Source of the DNA: Candidatus Iainarchaeum sp. | Lineage (GTDB): Archaea; Iainarchaeota; Iainarchaeia; Iainarchaeales; DTGL01 | Direction of reading: 5' to 3' | Assembly: GCA_038736825.1 (NCBI GenBank) | Contig: JAVYME010000047.1 | Location: 1-6,010 of the forward strand | DNA length: 6,010 nucleotides | Shown: piece by piece, positions 1 through 6,010 of the stretch | How positions within the stretch are numbered: position 1 is the stretch's first letter | Layout: each line of letters starts with the position of its first letter | The notes under the pieces: generated by a model | Database searches by the model: none | Seen by the model: the letters and a program-made list of their open reading frames with translations, nothing else | What the model was told of the DNA's origin: nothing | Translations under genes and position numbers: made by a program

Positions 1-649
1 CCCATACTCCGACTCCAAGGCCCCAGGCCTCTTCAGGACTGCAATTTTGTTTATATGTGCAGGGCTGGATTTGGTTGATTTCAGCCTCAGTATAAGTGTC
101 GCATGAAACGTTTGGAAGATAGCATTTTCCTCCGAGAAAGGATGCCGGGCTTGACCTCAAGCCGTGAATGTAAAACCGAACCATTTTGCCTGTCTTGTTG
201 TTTATGTAGTCTATTGTGTTGCCGATTTTTGTAAAGTCGTCGTCCATGCTTCCAGAAGTGTCCATGATGAAGTGGATTTCCACATTGGGCTGTGCCGTCA
301 CTTTAAGGTCGGGAATGTTCAAGTAATAGTTTTTTTCTCCATAAAAACCGTCAAACAATTCTTTCAATATGTTGTAGTCGTCAACTGTGTGGGGGCCGTA
401 CTGCCTTGAGCCGGCCCCGTAATAGGAATAGTTTGCGATTATTTCCCCGATTGTTTCCCCTGTTTGTGGTTCAACGATTTCGAGCAAGGCGTCAAAGCTT
501 TGCTCTAGGCGTTTTTCTTCAGCAAAGGTTTCCATGTCCCTGGTTGCCTGTGCAGCCTGGTTGAGCCTGTCCACTTCCACAAAAATCAGGGCTGCAAGGA
601 ACAAGCCCACAATGAATAATGCTGAAAGGATGTTTGATGTTTCAGCCAT
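1..649 (-). CDS. von Willebrand factor type A (vWA/MIDAS) domain protein with an N-terminal transmembrane helix; partial, C-terminus runs off the left edge
   Basis: This ORF is absent from the supplied track because it has no in-window stop. My manual minus-strand translation from the ATG at 647-649 stays open through nt 2 (216 codons): MAETSNILSALFIVGLFLAALIFVEVDRLNQAAQATRDMETFAEEKRLEQSFDALLEIVEPQTGETIGEIIANYSYYGAGSRQYGPHTVDDYNILKELFDGFYGEKNYYLNIPDLKVTAQPNVEIHFIMDTSGSMDDDFTKIGNTIDYINNKTGKMVRFYIHGLRSSPASFLGGKCYLPNVSCDTYTEAEINQIQPCTYKQNCSPEEAWGLGVGVW... A hydrophobic helix spans aa 7-24. A hydrophobic strand is followed by the DxSxS MIDAS motif (D130-T-S-G-S134, nt 248-262), an amphipathic helix, and a second hydrophobic strand (MVRFYIHGL). 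This is the canonical opening of a vWA fold. The ATG directly abuts the upstream TGA (TGAATG), and GTGA lies 7 nt upstream. Confidence 0.8.
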   Translation of the reverse strand, partial: MAETSNILSALFIVGLFLAALIFVEVDRLNQAAQATRDMETFAEEKRLEQSFDALLEIVEPQTGETIGEIIANYSYYGAGSRQYGPHTVDDYNILKELFDGFYGEKNYYLNIPDLKVTAQPNVEIHFIMDTSGSMDDDFTKIGNTIDYINNKTGKMVRFYIHGLRSSPASFLGGKCYLPNVSCDTYTEAEINQIQPCTYKQNCSPEEAWGLGVGVW

Positions 650-1417
650 TCATTTTTCACGCCCTGATTTGACAAAATAAAATATTATGAGAATTATGAA
701 AACTGCCGCGATGCCACCAATCAAGAGATAGTTGGTGTTGCCTTCAGGTTGCGGTGTTGGCGTGGGCTGTACTGTTTTTCCCGGGAAAACAGTTTCCTGT
801 CCTTGAATTGTTTGGGTTGGCTGTGGTGTCATGGTTTTCAGGCAGTCCGGGTCAACACCTCGCGCGCAGTCTGGGTCGCAATAAGTGTCTTCAAGCCAGA
901 CACATATTCCGTCCTCTTTGTCCATCGGGCAGTCCTTGCAGGAAAGAGCTGTTTCGTCTGGGTCACAGGCATTGTTTTGATTGCAAAGCCTTTCCTTTAC
1001 ATTGAATTCGAACGGCTTTTCAATTCCGTCGACTTTGACTGAAACCTTTTCTATTTCTTCTTTGTAGGGCATGAAGACATCCTTGGTTCCGGTGTCAGGC
1101 GGCTTTATTTCGTTATAGGGAAGGTTTTCGTCGAGAATGGAATAACTGTACAATATTTGTGGGGGAAAAAGGGCCAGCCTCACACTGTCAAGTTTTTGGC
1201 CTGAAGCGGAAAGAGTGGAGAGCGTGGCGTTTCCCGGCAATTCGTTCTGCGAGGCATAATCGTATAGGGTTTTGATGCCGGTTAGGTTCAAGCGATCAAA
1301 GTTCGTGTCGTAAGTGATTGTGAACCTTACCACCTTGATTTCGTCCTGCGCGAAAGCTACTGCAGTAAGGCAGAGCAGGAGTGCAATCAAAATCGCTTTA
1401 AATTTTTTTTTGTTCAA
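650..1417 (-). CDS. secreted, C-terminally membrane-anchored surface protein with an 8-Cys module and a Pro/Thr-rich stalk (hypothetical)
   Basis: The track ORF is 650-1480, but its first codon at 1478-1480 is GTG and it overlaps the upstream gene by 38 nt. An in-frame TTG at 1415-1417 lies 6 nt downstream of GGAGGG (1424-1429). It yields a textbook Sec signal, (M)NKKKFKAILIALLLCLTAVAFA|QDE. The mature protein starts with a beta-rich region. Next comes C-x5-C-x8-C-x2-C-x8-C-x7-C-x3-C-x7-C with repeated DPD(C/E) (nt 842-985). A P/T/Q-rich linker follows, TMTPQPTQTIQGQETVFPGKTVQPTPTPQPEG (nt 740-835). The protein ends with a TM helix, LLIGGIAAVFIILIIFYFV, and a basic tail, KSGREK. Confidence 0.75.
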   Translation of the reverse strand: MNKKKFKAILIALLLCLTAVAFAQDEIKVVRFTITYDTNFDRLNLTGIKTLYDYASQNELPGNATLSTLSASGQKLDSVRLALFPPQILYSYSILDENLPYNEIKPPDTGTKDVFMPYKEEIEKVSVKVDGIEKPFEFNVKERLCNQNNACDPDETALSCKDCPMDKEDGICVWLEDTYCDPDCARGVDPDCLKTMTPQPTQTIQGQETVFPGKTVQPTPTPQPEGNTNYLLIGGIAAVFIILIIFYFVKSGREK

Positions 1418-1423
1418 ATCCAA

Positions 1424-1429
1424 CCCTCC
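1424..1429 (-). promoter_or_regulatory. Shine-Dalgarno-like ribosome-binding site (GGAGGG) for the 650-1417 gene
   Basis: The minus-strand mRNA reads TAAAAAAAATTTGAATGGAGGGTTGGATTTGAAC. GGAGGG lies 6 nt upstream of the TTG at 1415-1417. It falls in the short gap after the TAA (1443-1445) of the upstream gene. Confidence 0.6.
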
Positions 1430-1442
1430 ATTCAAATTTTTT

Positions 1443-1874
1443 TTAGCCTTCAATTCTAATGGCTTTTGTAGCCTTGTCACACCTCACCTTTAGCGTGCTT
1501 GGAATCGTTAGGTTTGCTGGTGAAACCATTAAATTGCAGGTTTCACAGACATTGAATTTGTTGAAATCTGTTTCCAGGGAAAGCTTTGTTATTGGTTTCC
1601 CATAGTCTTTTTCTTCTGCATTCACTACGTGCACTATTCCGCAGTCCCTGTCCTCGCGCCCGAAATTGCAAGAGCGCCAGCAGTCTGAAACCATTCCCAG
1701 GAATGCATTGTAATTGATTTTTTGAAAGGTGTTTTGGTCCGCAGGCTTTCCACCCAGCAGTTGTGTGAGGTTTTCCTGCATTTTTTGAAAGTCAAAGCCG
1801 CCTATGAAGCCAATCACCAAAAAGCCAGCTATCACTGCAAAAAAGAAGAACACCAGCACTTCTATTACCTGCAT
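1443..1874 (-). CDS. small membrane or pilin-like protein: N-terminal hydrophobic helix plus a 6-Cys globular domain (hypothetical)
   Basis: The track ORF is 1443-1898, but its first codon is TTG and it overlaps the micro-ORF. The ATG at 1872-1874 is preceded by GGTGA (1879-1883) plus AAAA, which favours the shorter 143-aa form: MQVIEVLVFFFFAVIAGFLVIGFIGGFDFQKMQ... It has a single N-terminal hydrophobic helix. The soluble domain carries Cys residues in the pattern C-x3-C-x8-C ... C-x2-C ... C. The stop is TAA at 1443-1445. Confidence 0.7.
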   Translation of the reverse strand: MQVIEVLVFFFFAVIAGFLVIGFIGGFDFQKMQENLTQLLGGKPADQNTFQKINYNAFLGMVSDCWRSCNFGREDRDCGIVHVVNAEEKDYGKPITKLSLETDFNKFNVCETCNLMVSPANLTIPSTLKVRCDKATKAIRIEG

Positions 1875-1878
1875 TTTT

Positions 1879-1974
1879 TCACCATTTAAGCGCGCCAAGC
1901 GCGTAAATTATCAAGAGCGAGAGCGCAGCAAGCCCTATCAGTATTTCAATGATCTGCCAGGTCGTCCTGCTCAT
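1879..1974 (-). CDS. 31-aa hydrophobic micro-protein (candidate minimal pilin-like or Flp-like subunit, or a small membrane subunit)
   Basis: This ORF is not in the track. My manual translation gives ATG(1972-1974) AGC AGG ACG ACC TGG CAG ATC ATT GAA ... TGA(1879-1881), which encodes MSRTTWQIIEILIGLAALSLLIIYALGALKW. The ATG overlaps the FlaJ-like stop as ATGA. A strong SD, GGAGTGAT (1981-1988), lies 6 nt upstream. The next gene's RBS begins at this ORF's stop codon, so it fills the gap exactly. Confidence 0.6.
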   Translation of the reverse strand: MSRTTWQIIEILIGLAALSLLIIYALGALKW

Positions 1975-3866
1975 CCGCCCATCACTCCAGAGAAAACATA
2001 GTTTGTAAAAACAAATATTCCTAACAATAGCATTGAGCTGAAAACACCAAAGCCTGTCAAAAGAGTGCTGAAAATTGTTTTTCCAATTTTGTGCCTGTCT
2101 GAGCCGTATTTTATGTTTGCAAGGAAGGTTCCAAGGACCACAAGGGTCAAGATTATGTATACGCCAACTATTGCGAGCACAATGGTTGGCGGGATTATGG
2201 TTGAAGGATCAACAAGTTGCAGCGAGAAGTCTTTTAAGCCCACGCTTCTTGCAATGCCTTCTATTTCCTTGCTTATGAATTCAAGCGACATTACTATGGC
2301 TACTGCCATTATCACTGCAGTGGATGCAAGGATTGGTGCAAGCGCTTTGACTGAAACGCTTACAGTTGCAAATGTGTCGTTCAAGAGCGTTCTCAGGTAA
2401 TTATCAAGCCTGAAAATTGAAAGAGTTTGCGAGCGTATCATTTTCGCTGATTTTGCCGCACTCGCTATATCTATGTCTGCAAAGTGCACTATTCTGCGCA
2501 TTATTTGAACAAGCCTTTTTGAGGCAATTATTTCAGGCAGTTTTGTTTCAACAATTTCACCCAATGTTTTCTTGGTGTTATACAGTTCTTTGGTTATTTC
2601 ATTTAAGATTTTTACTACAGCGTGCTTTTTGAAGCCATGCCTAATATAATCGCTTTTCACATCCTGTATTATGCTTTCCATTGGCCTGTTCAATACAAGA
2701 TAACTGCTTATTATTTGGAGCAAGTGTGGAACATCTTCCTCTACCTCGTTCATTTCCTGCCAGGTTTTTTCATTCAAGGTAATGTACCTGAAAAGGTAAA
2801 TGGATATTCCTGCAACTATGCCAAAGAGCATGAGCCATACATTGAAGAGTGATTCAAAAGCATATTCTCTTGCCACCCCTGTTGGCGTGGACATATCAAC
2901 TTGCATGAAGTGAATTATTGCAGGTATTGCAAGTATTATCATAAACCCTGCACAAAGATAGGCAAAGCCTGGCGGCATTTTCTTGAATTTTGGTGACATT
3001 GAAAGGTCTATTGTGTTAACCTGAACTCTGTTCAATGCAAACTGCATTGCAAAAAGCATTAGCAGTGCCGGGCAGGAAACATTGTAAATGAAGATTAGCA
3101 TTGGCACATTTATCATATTGGGTAAAAAAATTGAAATTAGGGGAAGCATTATTAGCGACATCATTGGCAGCATTACCCCTATTGAAATCAGGCTTTTGGC
3201 TTGGTTTGAAAGGGTTTCAGTGGAACGCTTGCCGATATTGTAATAGCTTTGAATTATGGTTTTAATGCATTCCCTGAGCATTGGCTCCCTTTCCTTCAAT
3301 GGTGCCAAGGATGCTGTTTGAATCATGTTTAAGCCTTTCACGAATTCTGGGTTTATTTCCATCCATTTTGGAATGTATTCCTCAAAGGCTTCCCCCAAAG
3401 TGGAATATTTTTTGTTCTCCAGCTTTTGCTGGATGTCCCTGAATTGTTTTCCCATAGTGCCAGTAAGTCCTTTAGTGGTTTCAATGAAGGCAAATTCAAG
3501 GCTTGTGTTTAGGCTCAAATAATTGGCTATTTCAAGCAATGCTTGTAGCATTTCTTCTTTTTGCTTTAGAATGCTTTGAGTGTAATAAATGTTTGCACCG
3601 TAAAGGTAGGCGGCAAGCGGGATTAAGACAGAACCAAAAAAGAAAAGGTATGCCAAGAGCTCTAGCAAAGGATGCCCTGTCATGGCGTTCAATATATAGA
3701 AAAAAAAGCCTGTTAATCCCAGCCCTAAAAACCAGATTGTCAAACCTGAAATGAATTCTCCAGAAGTATAAGGAAATTCCACTTGCTGGAATTTTTTTTC
3801 CACCATAGAGGATTTCTTGAAGATTTTGAATTTTCTGCCTGTTTCGTAAACGAAATCAAAGTACAT
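1971..3866 (-). CDS. type IV filament platform protein, FlaJ/ArlJ / TadC / PilC (T2SS-F) family, polytopic membrane protein
   Basis: I count about 9 hydrophobic TM segments arranged as 2 TM, a roughly 130-aa cytoplasmic helical domain, 4 TM, a second roughly 135-aa helical domain, then 3 TM. The internal duplication typical of T2SS-F proteins is visible: IANYLSLNTSLEFAF (nt 3486-3530) aligns with ISSYLVLNRPMESII (nt 2670-2714). The gene sits immediately downstream of the secretion ATPase. The track start at 3920 is a TTG that overlaps the ATPase by 32 nt. The ATG at 3864-3866 (MYFDFVYETG...) follows the ATPase TAG (3889-3891) and is preceded by AGTGA plus AAAAA, so I prefer it (631 aa). The 630-650 aa fused two-domain size matches archaeal FlaJ-type proteins rather than the split bacterial TadB and TadC. 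Confidence 0.85.
   Translation of the reverse strand: MYFDFVYETGRKFKIFKKSSMVEKKFQQVEFPYTSGEFISGLTIWFLGLGLTGFFFYILNAMTGHPLLELLAYLFFFGSVLIPLAAYLYGANIYYTQSILKQKEEMLQALLEIANYLSLNTSLEFAFIETTKGLTGTMGKQFRDIQQKLENKKYSTLGEAFEEYIPKWMEINPEFVKGLNMIQTASLAPLKEREPMLRECIKTIIQSYYNIGKRSTETLSNQAKSLISIGVMLPMMSLIMLPLISIFLPNMINVPMLIFIYNVSCPALLMLFAMQFALNRVQVNTIDLSMSPKFKKMPPGFAYLCAGFMIILAIPAIIHFMQVDMSTPTGVAREYAFESLFNVWLMLFGIVAGISIYLFRYITLNEKTWQEMNEVEEDVPHLLQIISSYLVLNRPMESIIQDVKSDYIRHGFKKHAVVKILNEITKELYNTKKTLGEIVETKLPEIIASKRLVQIMRRIVHFADIDIASAAKSAKMIRSQTLSIFRLDNYLRTLLNDTFATVSVSVKALAPILASTAVIMAVAIVMSLEFISKEIEGIARSVGLKDFSLQLVDPSTIIPPTIVLAIVGVYIILTLVVLGTFLANIKYGSDRHKIGKTIFSTLLTGFGVFSSMLLLGIFVFTNYVFSGVMGG
1981..1988 (-). 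promoter_or_regulatory. Shine-Dalgarno-like site (GGAGTGAT) embedded in the last codons of the FlaJ-like gene, serving the 31-aa ORF
   Basis: The mRNA reads TCT GGA GTG ATG GGC GGA TGA, which is S G V M G G stop. GGAGTGAT is complementary to the conserved 16S 3' end AUCACCUCC. A 6-nt spacer (GGGCGG) separates it from the ATG at 1974. Confidence 0.6.
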
Positions 3867-3888
3867 TTTTTTCACTTTTCTTTTAAAA

Positions 3889-5553
3889 CTATTTTGAGGC
3901 AAGCTGGATTGTTCTGTCAAATGCTTCTTTGAATTCTTTTTCTGCTTTAGGGCTTTCCAATGGCTCTATTTGTTCAAACAAGTCTGCAAAAATCATGTTG
4001 GCTTTGAGAACGCTTGCTCCTTCGAGTCTTTCCGGAAAAACCGATGAAAGCCCAACAAATTTTTGTTTTGCCCAAGCCCTGAGCTCAATGTCCTTTATGG
4101 CAGCATCATATGACTTGTATGCAAGGGTTGTTTGCAGTATGTTTTTTATTATTTCAGATTTTCCATTCAACAGCTCTTTTGTTGGCTCAAGTGAATCGTT
4201 TTCTTTGTTGTAGAGCATCAAGTCTTGGAATTTTGGCTCTTTTTCCCAGTCCTTTAGCACTTCAGTTACCTGCGTTACTCTTCTCACATGATGCATTCCA
4301 GTGGCAGACTTAATTTGTTTTATGATTATTATGAGGTCTGTTACTTTGAACGAACCCCTTGGAACACCTAAGTCGTTGACAACGCGATCAAATACCCCGT
4401 ATGGAGTGTCAGCATGAATTGTTCCAGCAACAGTATTGGACATTGCACCAACACGCATTGCCTCATATAACACTCTTGCCTCTCCAGACCTGACTTCGCC
4501 CAAAATCAGGCAGGAATTTCCAAGCCTTAAACAGGTTCTCAAGCCTTTTTCTGGGGAAATCTCCAATCCTTCAGGGGAAAGCGCAGACTTTACTTTAAAG
4601 CAAAGAATGTCATAACCAAAATCTTTGTAAGCGTTTATTGGCAGTTCCTGAGTGTCTTCAATTGTTATAATCCTGTATTTGGGCAATATTTCCAGAATAG
4701 TTGCCCCCAAAAGGGATGTTTTACCAGAACCCCTTGGCCCAGTAAACATCATTGTTCTGCCGTGTGTCACCATGAAAGACATTAGCCCGGCAAAGAACGG
4801 AGAGAGCGTATTGTTTGAAATGAACAATGGCAGAGTCCAAGGCTTTTCCCTATGACGCCTGATAGAATAGCCTATGCCGTGTATTGAGAAAGGTTGCACT
4901 ACAGCTGCAACCCTTGCCCTTTGTTTTTCCACTATTAGTTCAGCATCAAGCTGGGGTTGTGCTTTGTTCAACGGCCTTCCTGACTCTATTTTCAGGAAAG
5001 TGGCAAGATAGTTGAGCAAGTCTATTGATGGATAAATGTTGGAGCGGCATTCATCGAATTCTTCGTGGACTATTCTGAAAGAGCTTTGGAATTCTGGGGG
5101 GTTAATGTTTATTTCTTGTATTTTGGGGTCGTTCATCAAGTAATCCAGGATGCCGTGCTGTTTTATCCATCTTACAAGCAATGGTGTTTTCATTTCGCTT
5201 GACTCGTATTCTTTGTGCAATTCCAGTAATTGTTTTAAGTTCAAGTCAAGGTTTGGAATTTCTATTGTGTAAGTTGGCTCCAGGTTTTGTTTTTCTTGCA
5301 CTATTTTCACACTGCTGTCTTTTATGGTGTAAGATTTCAATACTTTGCCTTTCACTGGTTTTATAAGGCAGTCAACAAAAAAAGGATATAACACATAAGA
5401 GTCATCCGTTAAATAGTGTTGTTTTGTGAAAAGCTTGTTTTTGTAAACTATCAAGTCTGTTTCTTTTGATGGTTTCACGCACTTGCTGCATACTGCAAAG
5501 GAGATGTCTCCCAACCCCATGCAATTGTTGCAATCCCTTGTAATATAGTTCAC
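3889..5553 (-). CDS. type II/IV secretion-superfamily ATPase, archaeal FlaI/ArlI / PilB-like (VirB11/GspE/TadA family), with an N-terminal Cys4 zinc ribbon
   Basis: All family motifs appear in order. Walker A is FTGPRGSGKTSLL (G272-T279, nt 4717-4740). The Asp box is RIITIEDTQEL (nt 4642-4671). Walker B is SCLILGEVRSGEA (about nt 4480-4512). The His box is VAGTIHADTP. The upstream N-domain signatures are DPKIQEININ and RVAAVVQPFSIHGIGYSIRRH. The Walker A lysine is at aa 278, as expected from my recollection of FlaI-type proteins. The N-terminus carries C8-x2-C11-x10-C22-x2-C25. The start codon is GTG at 5551-5553, forming a GTGA overlap with the upstream stop. AAGAGG (5564-5569) lies 10 nt upstream. 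The stop is TAG at 3889-3891. Confidence 0.93.
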   Translation of the reverse strand: MNYITRDCNNCMGLGDISFAVCSKCVKPSKETDLIVYKNKLFTKQHYLTDDSYVLYPFFVDCLIKPVKGKVLKSYTIKDSSVKIVQEKQNLEPTYTIEIPNLDLNLKQLLELHKEYESSEMKTPLLVRWIKQHGILDYLMNDPKIQEININPPEFQSSFRIVHEEFDECRSNIYPSIDLLNYLATFLKIESGRPLNKAQPQLDAELIVEKQRARVAAVVQPFSIHGIGYSIRRHREKPWTLPLFISNNTLSPFFAGLMSFMVTHGRTMMFTGPRGSGKTSLLGATILEILPKYRIITIEDTQELPINAYKDFGYDILCFKVKSALSPEGLEISPEKGLRTCLRLGNSCLILGEVRSGEARVLYEAMRVGAMSNTVAGTIHADTPYGVFDRVVNDLGVPRGSFKVTDLIIIIKQIKSATGMHHVRRVTQVTEVLKDWEKEPKFQDLMLYNKENDSLEPTKELLNGKSEIIKNILQTTLAYKSYDAAIKDIELRAWAKQKFVGLSSVFPERLEGASVLKANMIFADLFEQIEPLESPKAEKEFKEAFDRTIQLASK

Positions 5554-5978
5554 TTGTTGGTCGCCTCTTTTTCTGTTTTCATGGAGCGCTCGTATTCTTT
5601 CAAATACTGCCTTGTCCTTTGCAGTCTTGAAACAAGAAGAGCATCCGCAGTGCTACCCATTTTTTTCTCTAAGACTTGAACACGACGGTCTATTTCCTCT
5701 GTCTCGCTTGTGAGATAGTTGAACAGTTCTGGTGCTCTAATACTGGCAAGCTTTCCAAAGCTTTTTTCAACTTCAGCCATTTCTTTTTTTAGCCTTTGAT
5801 AGTTTTTCATTGTTATATCTGAAGCTGAAAGCCCTTGCGCTATAGAGAAAACCTGCTTTATTTCTTTGGTTGAATTTGATACAAGAGTGAGCTTTGACGA
5901 AACAAGAGCAATCCTTTTCTCAAACTCTGCAATTTTTTCCTCTGCTTCCAGAGAAGAATAGGATTCGCCTGCAATCAT
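5550..5978 (-). CDS. hypothetical coiled-coil protein, translationally coupled to the ATPase; may extend beyond the right edge
   Basis: The 142-aa ORF is rich in E, K, L, R and Q with heptad-like stretches (EAEEKIAEFEKRIALVSSKL; RLKKEMAEVEKSFGKLAS; EEIDRRVQVLEKKMG; RLQRTRQYLKEYERSMKTEKE). It has no TM segment. The TGA at 5550-5552 overlaps the ATPase GTG. The reading frame upstream of the ATG at 5976-5978 stays open to nt 6008 (...RSKLKKIIAA-M), and no SD precedes that ATG. The true N-terminus may therefore lie outside the window. Confidence 0.6.
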   Translation of the reverse strand: MIAGESYSSLEAEEKIAEFEKRIALVSSKLTLVSNSTKEIKQVFSIAQGLSASDITMKNYQRLKKEMAEVEKSFGKLASIRAPELFNYLTSETEEIDRRVQVLEKKMGSTADALLVSRLQRTRQYLKEYERSMKTEKEATNK

Positions 5979-6010
5979 TGCTGCAATTATTTTTTTTAGT
6001 TTGGACCTTG

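Follow-up and report, generated by a model that had tools for sequence, protein, structure and literature searches.

A contig-cut archaeal locus with a type IV filament ATPase, a sequence-dark platform and leaderless pilin-like proteins

The described systems closest to the locus reported here are the archaeal type IV pili of subclade 4F, which comprises systems from haloarchaea and 'nanoarchaea' whose ATPases often bear a Cys-rich domain at the N-terminus and are accompanied by an intracellular protein of coiled-coil type, and in whose nanoarchaeal members the pilins could not be identified (Makarova et al. 2016). Genome surveys report loci with an ATPase and a platform, and with pilins that 'could not be identified' (PMC4858521; PMC9563170). 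We have analyzed a 6,010-nucleotide stretch of DNA, referred to here as the window, which is the entire 6,010-bp contig JAVYME010000047.1 of Candidatus Iainarchaeum sp., a member of the Diapherotrites (the ATPase and platform are 100% identical in one NCBI record), and which contains seven open reading frames (ORFs), G1 to G7, among them an assembly ATPase (G2), its probable membrane platform (G3) and a pilin-like protein (G5). With a probability of about 0.6, we read it as a fragment, cut by the contig ends, of a locus for an adhesive type IV filament (TFF) with leaderless pilin-like subunits. Loci of this type are conserved among DPANN archaea, and a cousin exists in haloarchaea. The machine itself is of a known kind; what is new is the occurrence of leaderless pilin-like proteins with Met1 and Glu5 together with a platform that is dark at the sequence level. 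We infer the role of G5 in a filament, the von Willebrand factor A (vWA) fold of G7, and a function in attachment to a host.

Several features of the locus fit the 4F description, including the CxxC motifs of the ATPase, the coiled-coil protein G1, and the haloarchaeal origin of the nearest relative; they are no more than leads, a match by description. The closest relative of G2 in the plasmid collection is an ATPase of Haloterrigena turkmenica plasmid pHTUR04, with 34% identity over the core and a score of 210 bits; other haloarchaeal or CpaF matches score ~100 bits. The two systems share a homologous ATPase and an adjacent platform, G3 being homologous to a 604-aa Haloterrigena 'secretion system protein' (hhalign 99.4%, 527 columns), whereas the Haloterrigena locus has no detectable counterparts of G4 to G7. 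The plasmid locus (L086, NC_013747.1 9255-28292; the prefix L denotes the loci compared) is situated near genes for a DEAD/DEAH helicase, ParA, an AAA ATPase and a DUF87 protein, and the pHTUR04 pair may be linked to DNA transfer. A DUF7311 protein encoded before the plasmid ATPase also begins directly with a hydrophobic helix.

The bacterial Tad/Flp systems present a second comparison, one already drawn in an earlier note on this DNA that was made from its sequence alone. The ATPase falls in the CpaF/TadA-FlaI branch, the very small, helix-only G4 follows the platform, and G7 resembles TadG in being a large pilin-like protein with a possible vWA module or metal ion-dependent adhesion site (MIDAS), the vWA assignment being unconfirmed in G7. 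In contrast to Tad/Flp, the locus has one fused 631-aa platform in place of TadB and TadC, G2 scores 101 bits with the TadA hidden Markov model (HMM) TIGR03819 against a cut-off of 373, G4 does not have the Flp G/xxxxEY motif, and the locus yields no TadE or TadG Pfam match. The likeness is thus a loose one.

G2 belongs to the T2SSE family (Pfam PF00437, 57.2 bits; cut-off 24.9), and its Walker A motif (GPRGSGKTS) and downstream motifs are conserved within its own family, a profile of which, with 30 members, matches afGspE (2oap), CpaF and FlaI in the PDB with E-values of 1e-28 to 1e-19. Proteins with more than 50% identity to G2 are labelled Woese-, Nano-, Micr-, Diaphero- and Altiarchaeota. 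A contig scan with the single G2 protein as query found no relatives, whereas an alignment-based pattern scan of one genome per species succeeded and gave at least 588 confirmed relatives. Close to the N-terminus, at residues 8-25 (window 5479-5532, minus strand), is a CxxC...CxxC motif that is kept in most, not all, family members. G2 is an assembly ATPase of the hexameric type in the T2SSE family, and it belongs to a distinct, strongly conserved, DPANN-wide clade that is not the archaellum clade. The CxxC...CxxC motif resembles a zinc ribbon.

Some homologues are labelled 'archaeal flagellar protein FlaI' by JGI pipelines and FlaI is among the PDB matches of G2, so that the window could be imagined as part of an archaellum locus with archaellins and FlaF/G/H just beyond its ends. 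However, the FlaI equivalog model (NCBIfam NF058587) gives G2 102.5 bits against a cut-off of 550, and the sequence of the platform shows no relationship to T2SSF/FlaJ models. The window encodes no archaellin, ArlF/G or KaiC-like ArlH, and no archaellin, FlaF/G or KaiC-like Pfam matches were recorded within ~10 kb (less at contig ends) of the relatives on longer contigs. An archaellum is extremely improbable, as the earlier note had also concluded.

The platform, G3, is annotated as 'hypothetical' everywhere, its only Pfam match is a weak one to Spore_III_AB, and comparison of its sequence profile with the PDB returns noise only. Its AlphaFold2 model, with a predicted local distance difference test score (pLDDT) of 81.5, contains helical bundles that Foldseek matches to cytoplasmic domains of the GspF family (OutF 5nbg; EpsF 2vmb/3c1q/2vma) with probabilities of 0.92-0.97 and TM scores of 0.65-0.68; SpoIIIAB and the PilC model 3jc8 of the type IVa pilus machine are also matched. 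Full-length Foldseek matches are mostly to unrelated transporters and were set aside, the GspF domain matches alone being meaningful. The N-terminal half of G3 is related to its C-terminal half (hhalign 91%), reflecting an internal duplication, and PilC, GspF and FlaJ are all two-repeat proteins. The platform gene adjoins the ATPase gene in 73 of the 84 loci examined. The GspF-like domains, the related halves, the adjacency to the ATPase and the homology with the Haloterrigena protein together point to G3 as the probable cognate polytopic platform of G2, with two GspF-like cytoplasmic helical bundles. The core of T2SSE ATPase and polytopic platform recognized in the earlier note is therefore supported.

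The 'compact seven-gene module' described there is an artefact of contig truncation: in close relatives these genes are part of a locus that is at least 14 genes long. Loci L084 (23 kb) and L085 (162 kb), whose platforms are 74% and 66% identical to G3, respectively, share the order 209-aa protein, G1 (194 aa), ATPase, platform, G4, G5, G6, G7, and a 407-466-aa protein with a class III-like N-terminus (QKG/N, where the slash marks the cleavage site). Four further pilin-like genes form a divergent block; in L085 this is upstream, in L084 downstream. In the Woesearchaeota-type loci L006, L008 and L009 the platform gene is followed by a row of eight to ten pilin-like genes, and members of the accessory families recur elsewhere, G5 in nine other loci and G7 in 11. 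Conservation of the downstream ORFs beside the ATPase and platform in related DPANN genomes, which the earlier note had proposed as a test, is thus observed; with no archaellum families recorded in the flanks of relatives, neither of the outcomes by which that note said it would be refuted has come about, and a TFF other than an archaellum remains the reading. When the pilin-like neighbours, G6, the G7 homologues and the 407-aa protein were searched with Pfam and NCBIfam, only PKD and LamG domains scored above threshold. A 923-aa protein encoded after the G7-like gene of one of these loci (L006:17959-20730) has weak Hint/intein-type Pfam matches (E 0.001-0.01). The same system has a second DPANN clade, with more members, which is represented by loci L017-L083 (e.g. 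L035:278-2566, L082:9086-11359); its ATPases are ~760 aa long with a long N-terminal extension, its platforms ~720 aa, and few proteins with an M-x-x-x-E start, as described below for G5, were seen nearby.

The most unusual feature of the locus, which the earlier note did not mention, is the leaderless N-terminus of its pilin-like proteins, and the clearest example is presented by G5. A word-index search for homologues of G5 returned three proteins, and an exhaustive HMMER search was needed to assemble a family of 72 representatives. G5 begins Met1-Gln-Val-Ile-Glu5. In a 48-sequence alignment M1 is nearly invariant, E5, C69 and C132 are invariant, and the conserved residues further include W66, C110 and C113; the M-x-x-x-E start is found in 61 of the 74 family sequences examined, with the consensus M-[EQ]-[TA]-[IV]-E-[IV]-[IV]-[VI]-[FY]. 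Eleven of 15 genomic copies lack any ATG, GTG or TTG in frame between Met1 and the stop codon before it, and in several copies an in-frame stop lies just 0-4 codons upstream. With no upstream start available in most copies, a leader peptide is excluded for the family, barring a non-canonical upstream start codon. None of the ORFs in the window has a class III leader.

The AlphaFold2 model of G5 (pLDDT 91) has a transmembrane helix at residues 2-24, a kink, a second helix at 29-41, and a small alpha/beta domain with the conserved cysteines. Of the two tiny helix proteins proposed in the earlier note, G4 is indeed tiny (31 aa), whereas G5, at 143 aa, has this globular, Cys-containing domain. Among the top, non-significant Foldseek matches of the G5 model in the PDB, several hit LOX-1 in its C-type lectin-like domain (probability at most 0.18), a faint hint of a lectin-like head domain that we have not used.

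Like the bacterial type IVa pilins (PilA/PilE), G5 has an N-terminal hydrophobic helix, a Glu at mature position 5, and, at the C-terminus, a small globular domain in which cysteines are conserved, and its consensus start resembles the bacterial pilin motif F-T-L-I-E-L. It differs from them in having no leader and no G/F cleavage site, hence no need of a prepilin peptidase step, in having a globular domain that matches no solved pilin, and in belonging to an archaeal host with an archaeal-type ATPase. The related loci provide a link between leaderless and leadered proteins. They encode a KG/-leadered family with class III signal peptides (...KKG/TEKPIEIF..., ...EKG/MEMAIQVF...) and a leaderless family, designated MELP (MEMPIRVIITLFV...), and these two are related over their whole length (hhalign 98.9%), with the MELP Met1 aligned with the +1 residue that follows KG/ in the leadered family. 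G5 in turn matches MELP at 90.7% (hhalign), and on these profile comparisons it is remotely homologous to locus paralogues that have canonical class III (KG/) signal peptides. Full-text literature searches found no paper describing leaderless pilins.

These observations bear on two accounts of G5. It and the related leaderless families could be genuine filament subunits that are translated already 'mature', without prepilin-peptidase cleavage; taken by itself we hold this claim tentatively, at somewhat under even odds. Alternatively, the leaderless G5 and G4 could be membrane-anchored accessories, such as a stator, collar or alignment complex, and the filament would be built of KG/-leadered pilins encoded outside the window. 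The relatives' locus does encode proteins with canonical class III signal peptides, the fold of G5 matches no known pilin, and such accessories have parallels in the uncleaved, pilin-like or archaellin-like FlaF and FlaG of archaeal TFF machines, including the archaellum, as well as in PilN/PilO. Yet packing in a filament core has as its signature an invariant Glu5 at a constant spacing from Met1, which would not be expected in a stator, the MELP Met1 aligns exactly with the +1 residue of its leadered paralogue, and in L008 and L009 the G5-like genes are present in tandem copies, as is common for pilins. We regard the accessory explanation as unlikely, while taking it seriously as a competitor to filament subunits.

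G4, the 31-aa product encoded directly after the platform, has the full sequence MSRTTWQIIEILIGLAALSLLIIYALGALKW. The gene is missing from the NCBI annotation of the window contig, where the locus tags flanking it are consecutive, and from that of L084 and L085. An ORF nevertheless occupies the same position in L084 (5183-5278) and L085 (11890-11982), where it is the sole open frame and its substitutions are conservative; the N-terminus conforms to MS[KR][TS][TS]WQ[IV]IE[IV]. The JGI gene caller did call it in L087 (2005-2100), and the same slot in L001, L006, L008 and L009 contains one-helix ORFs of 30-37 aa. G4 is a real, conserved gene for a small membrane protein, whose product may be a minimal pilin or a platform accessory, and the annotation of DPANN metagenome-assembled genomes probably tends to miss small genes of this slot. 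Five residues precede the pilin-like stretch both in G4 (MSRTT-WQIIE) and in the G7 family (MSVTE-NV..., MAETS-NIL...).

The adhesive part of our reading rests with G7 and G6. The N-terminus of G7 is short and is followed by a transmembrane helix, as in its homologues (MSVTENV..., MGVVENV...); full-length relatives are 467-723 aa long and carry PKD or LamG domains. The earlier note had called G7 a vWA protein. A MIDAS-like DxSxS motif (DTSGS) is present, with D130 and S132 invariant in a nine-sequence alignment, and the SDELS and TGG motifs typical of vWA domains occur downstream in full-length homologues; the vWA assignment rests on motifs, and VWA models do not reach threshold, as is set out below. 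The best scores in the family are to Integrin_beta (E=0.071) and TssR_VWA (E=0.037), both sub-threshold, and the PDB profile matches, weak at E ~0.2, all fall on integrin MIDAS segments. In the L084 homologue, a close relative outside that alignment, the whole DxSxS segment is missing. In L085:13233-15404 (723 aa) and L084:6612-8303 the PKD domain is followed by a Cys-rich C-terminal domain with an HExxH motif (SAHELGHQF and SAHETGHTF, respectively). This domain hints at a metalloprotease-like module on a pilin-anchored protein, and no Pfam or NCBIfam model detects it. A bacterial parallel is the PilB of Streptococcus sanguinis, reportedly a modular pilin with a grafted vWA module; as in the arrangement proposed for G7, an adhesive MIDAS domain is said to sit on a pilin helix and to be carried by a type IV filament. 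Unlike G7, PilB is bacterial and has a canonical leader, while the vWA fold of G7 is not established and its relatives add PKD and HExxH domains. It is a reasonable, unproven proposal, made from these motifs, that G7 is a putative filament-borne adhesin or effector.

In G6 a Sec-type signal peptide is combined with a variable domain, a module in which eight cysteines are invariant, a Pro/Thr linker and a C-terminal transmembrane anchor; the protein has no Pfam match. Homologues adjoin G7-like genes in L085 (12491-13240) and L003 (4723-5490), and another is present in L081. The C-terminus, LLIGGIAAVFIILIIFYFVKSGREK (window 653-745, minus strand), has a weak match to the NCBIfam model GG_III-CTERM (E 0.03) and may be a sorting-signal-like anchor comparable to PGF-CTERM.

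Large proteins of this kind raise the possibility of a bindosome- or pseudopilus-like device for display or secretion, in which a short stalk of G5 and G4 would hold or push out large proteins rather than form an extended filament. The relatives encode several large proteins with pilin-like N-termini, with or without class III signals (the G7 family and a 'P407' family; 407-923 aa), and a 2026 survey has put forward binding-protein-functionalised TFF machines as widespread (bioRxiv 10.64898/2026.04.22.720090). G2 does match the NCBIfam model of the bindosome ATPase BasE, but at 66 bits against a cut-off of 1000, which is below its FlaI and TadA scores; the loci fetched contain no ABC-transporter or substrate-binding-protein domains, and their many small pilin-like paralogues look like a set of major and minor pilins. 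We therefore think such a device quite unlikely.

Several points weigh against the reading of the window as an adhesive filament locus with leaderless subunits. The filament and its assembly are predictions from sequence and models. G3 matches no T2SSF model (PF00482, NCBIfam) and no PDB sequence, and its full-length Foldseek E-values are not significant, only the domain-level matches being convincing. Foldseek comparison of the G5 model with the PDB and BFVD found no solved pilin and nothing significant (best E 0.84), so that the pilin status of G5 rests on its N-terminus, its genomic context and the 90.7% profile link. The five extra N-terminal residues of G4 and G7 are without the usual basic/Gly cleavage context. 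No A24 prepilin peptidase is encoded in the window, and none was recorded in the flanks of L001-L003, L084 and L085; the KG/ and RG/ leaders of paralogues in the same locus of relatives imply that a peptidase exists, and leaderless does not mean peptidase-free. Finally, no Pfam VWA model reaches threshold in 11 members of the G7 family.

If the locus does encode an adhesive type IV filament, G2 would dock on the cytoplasmic domains of the platform and use ATP to lift pilin-like subunits from the membrane into the growing filament. G5, and possibly G4, would enter as core or initiating subunits without processing by a prepilin peptidase. The archaeal initiator Met is not formylated, so Met1 would offer a free amine for pairing with Glu5 in the adjacent subunit, the arrangement of bacterial pilus cores. 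G7 would ride the filament by its pilin-like helix and present its MIDAS-like, PKD and HExxH-motif domains for contact with a host or surface; G6, exported by Sec and anchored at its C-terminus, would be its disulfide-rich surface partner; and G1, a cytoplasmic coiled-coil protein, could serve the ATPase as a scaffold or regulator.

The features of the window are listed in Table 1. A reverse-strand reading confirms that all seven ORFs are on the minus strand, and it confirms all six junctions given in the earlier note: the G1 stop overlaps the ATPase start in GTGA (5550-5553), a 22-nt gap separates G2 from G3 (3867-3888), the start of G4 overlaps the platform stop in ATGA (1971-1974), a 4-nt gap separates G4 from G5 (1875-1878), a 25-nt gap separates G5 from G6 (1418-1442), with GGAGG preceding the TTG start of G6, and G6 meets G7 at TGAATG (647-652). 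The start codons of G2 (GTG 5553), G3 (ATG 3866) and G5 (ATG 1874) match the N-termini of homologues. The plus strand has short antisense ORFs only, and Rfam and repeat scans of the window found no Rfam family and no notable repeat.

Table 1. Features of the 6,010-bp window, listed in the direction of reading of the minus strand.
Gene	Feature	Coordinates	Strand	Basis
G1	Cytoplasmic coiled-coil protein, 5' end missing	5550..6010	-	Frame open to edge, homologue alignment
G2	T2SSE (PilB/FlaI/TadA-type) assembly ATPase, 554 aa, GTG start	3889..5553	-	PF00437, PDB profile matches
G3	Polytopic membrane platform, 631 aa, FlaJ/PilC/GspF-like by fold and architecture only	1971..3866	-	AlphaFold2, Foldseek
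G4	Single-helix membrane protein, 31 aa, MSRTTWQIIEIL...	1879..1974	-	Positional conservation
G5	Leaderless pilin-like protein, 143 aa	1443..1874	-	Family alignment, profile comparisons
G6	Sec signal peptide, Cys module and transmembrane anchor, 255 aa, TTG start	650..1417	-	Homologues beside G7-like genes
G7	Pilin-like N-terminal transmembrane helix and MIDAS-like DTSGS, 216 aa present, 3' end missing	1..649	-	Family alignment

Both terminal genes, G1 and G7, are severed by the contig ends. The first gene is not complete at 142 aa; its frame runs open as far as the edge of the contig, and the C-terminal ~152 of ~190 aa are present. It aligns with residues ~48-189 of homologues of 189-194 aa, so that the ATG at 5978 encodes an internal Met. 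G1 is 53% identical to the product of L084:1068-1637 and also aligns with that of L085:7730-8314; its Pfam matches are weak and of coiled-coil type only. Searches with jackhmmer across the loci gave no match for either G1 or G4, and the conservation of these two is therefore shown solely by positional and pairwise comparison with close relatives. A relationship of G1 to the DUF7311 protein upstream of the Haloterrigena ATPase was considered and ruled out, comparison showing none. Two genes of L084 are interrupted: the ATPase (1649-3098) is broken into ORFs of 397 aa and 93 aa, and G6 (5787-6553) is split into ORFs of 103 aa and 93 aa, which could come from pseudogenisation or else from frameshifts in the assembly.

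DPANN archaea need contact with host cells, for which pili have repeatedly been invoked; the guess in the earlier note that the DNA came from a small, host-dependent archaeon was right in that the contig is from the Diapherotrites. Beyond its ATPase, the locus consists almost wholly of unannotated, 'dark' proteins, and it supplies candidates for an adhesin or effector at the host interface in G7, with its MIDAS-like motif and the PKD and HExxH-motif domains of its family, and in G6. If G5 and the related leaderless families are genuine filament subunits, they would form a class of type IV pilins without leaders, which would explain the failure of pilin identification based on signal peptides in the TFF loci of DPANN archaea and 'nanoarchaea'. 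Should the Met1/Glu5 proteins be filament subunits, programs such as FlaFind and PilFind would systematically miss pilins of this kind, and the definition of a pilin would need an exception.

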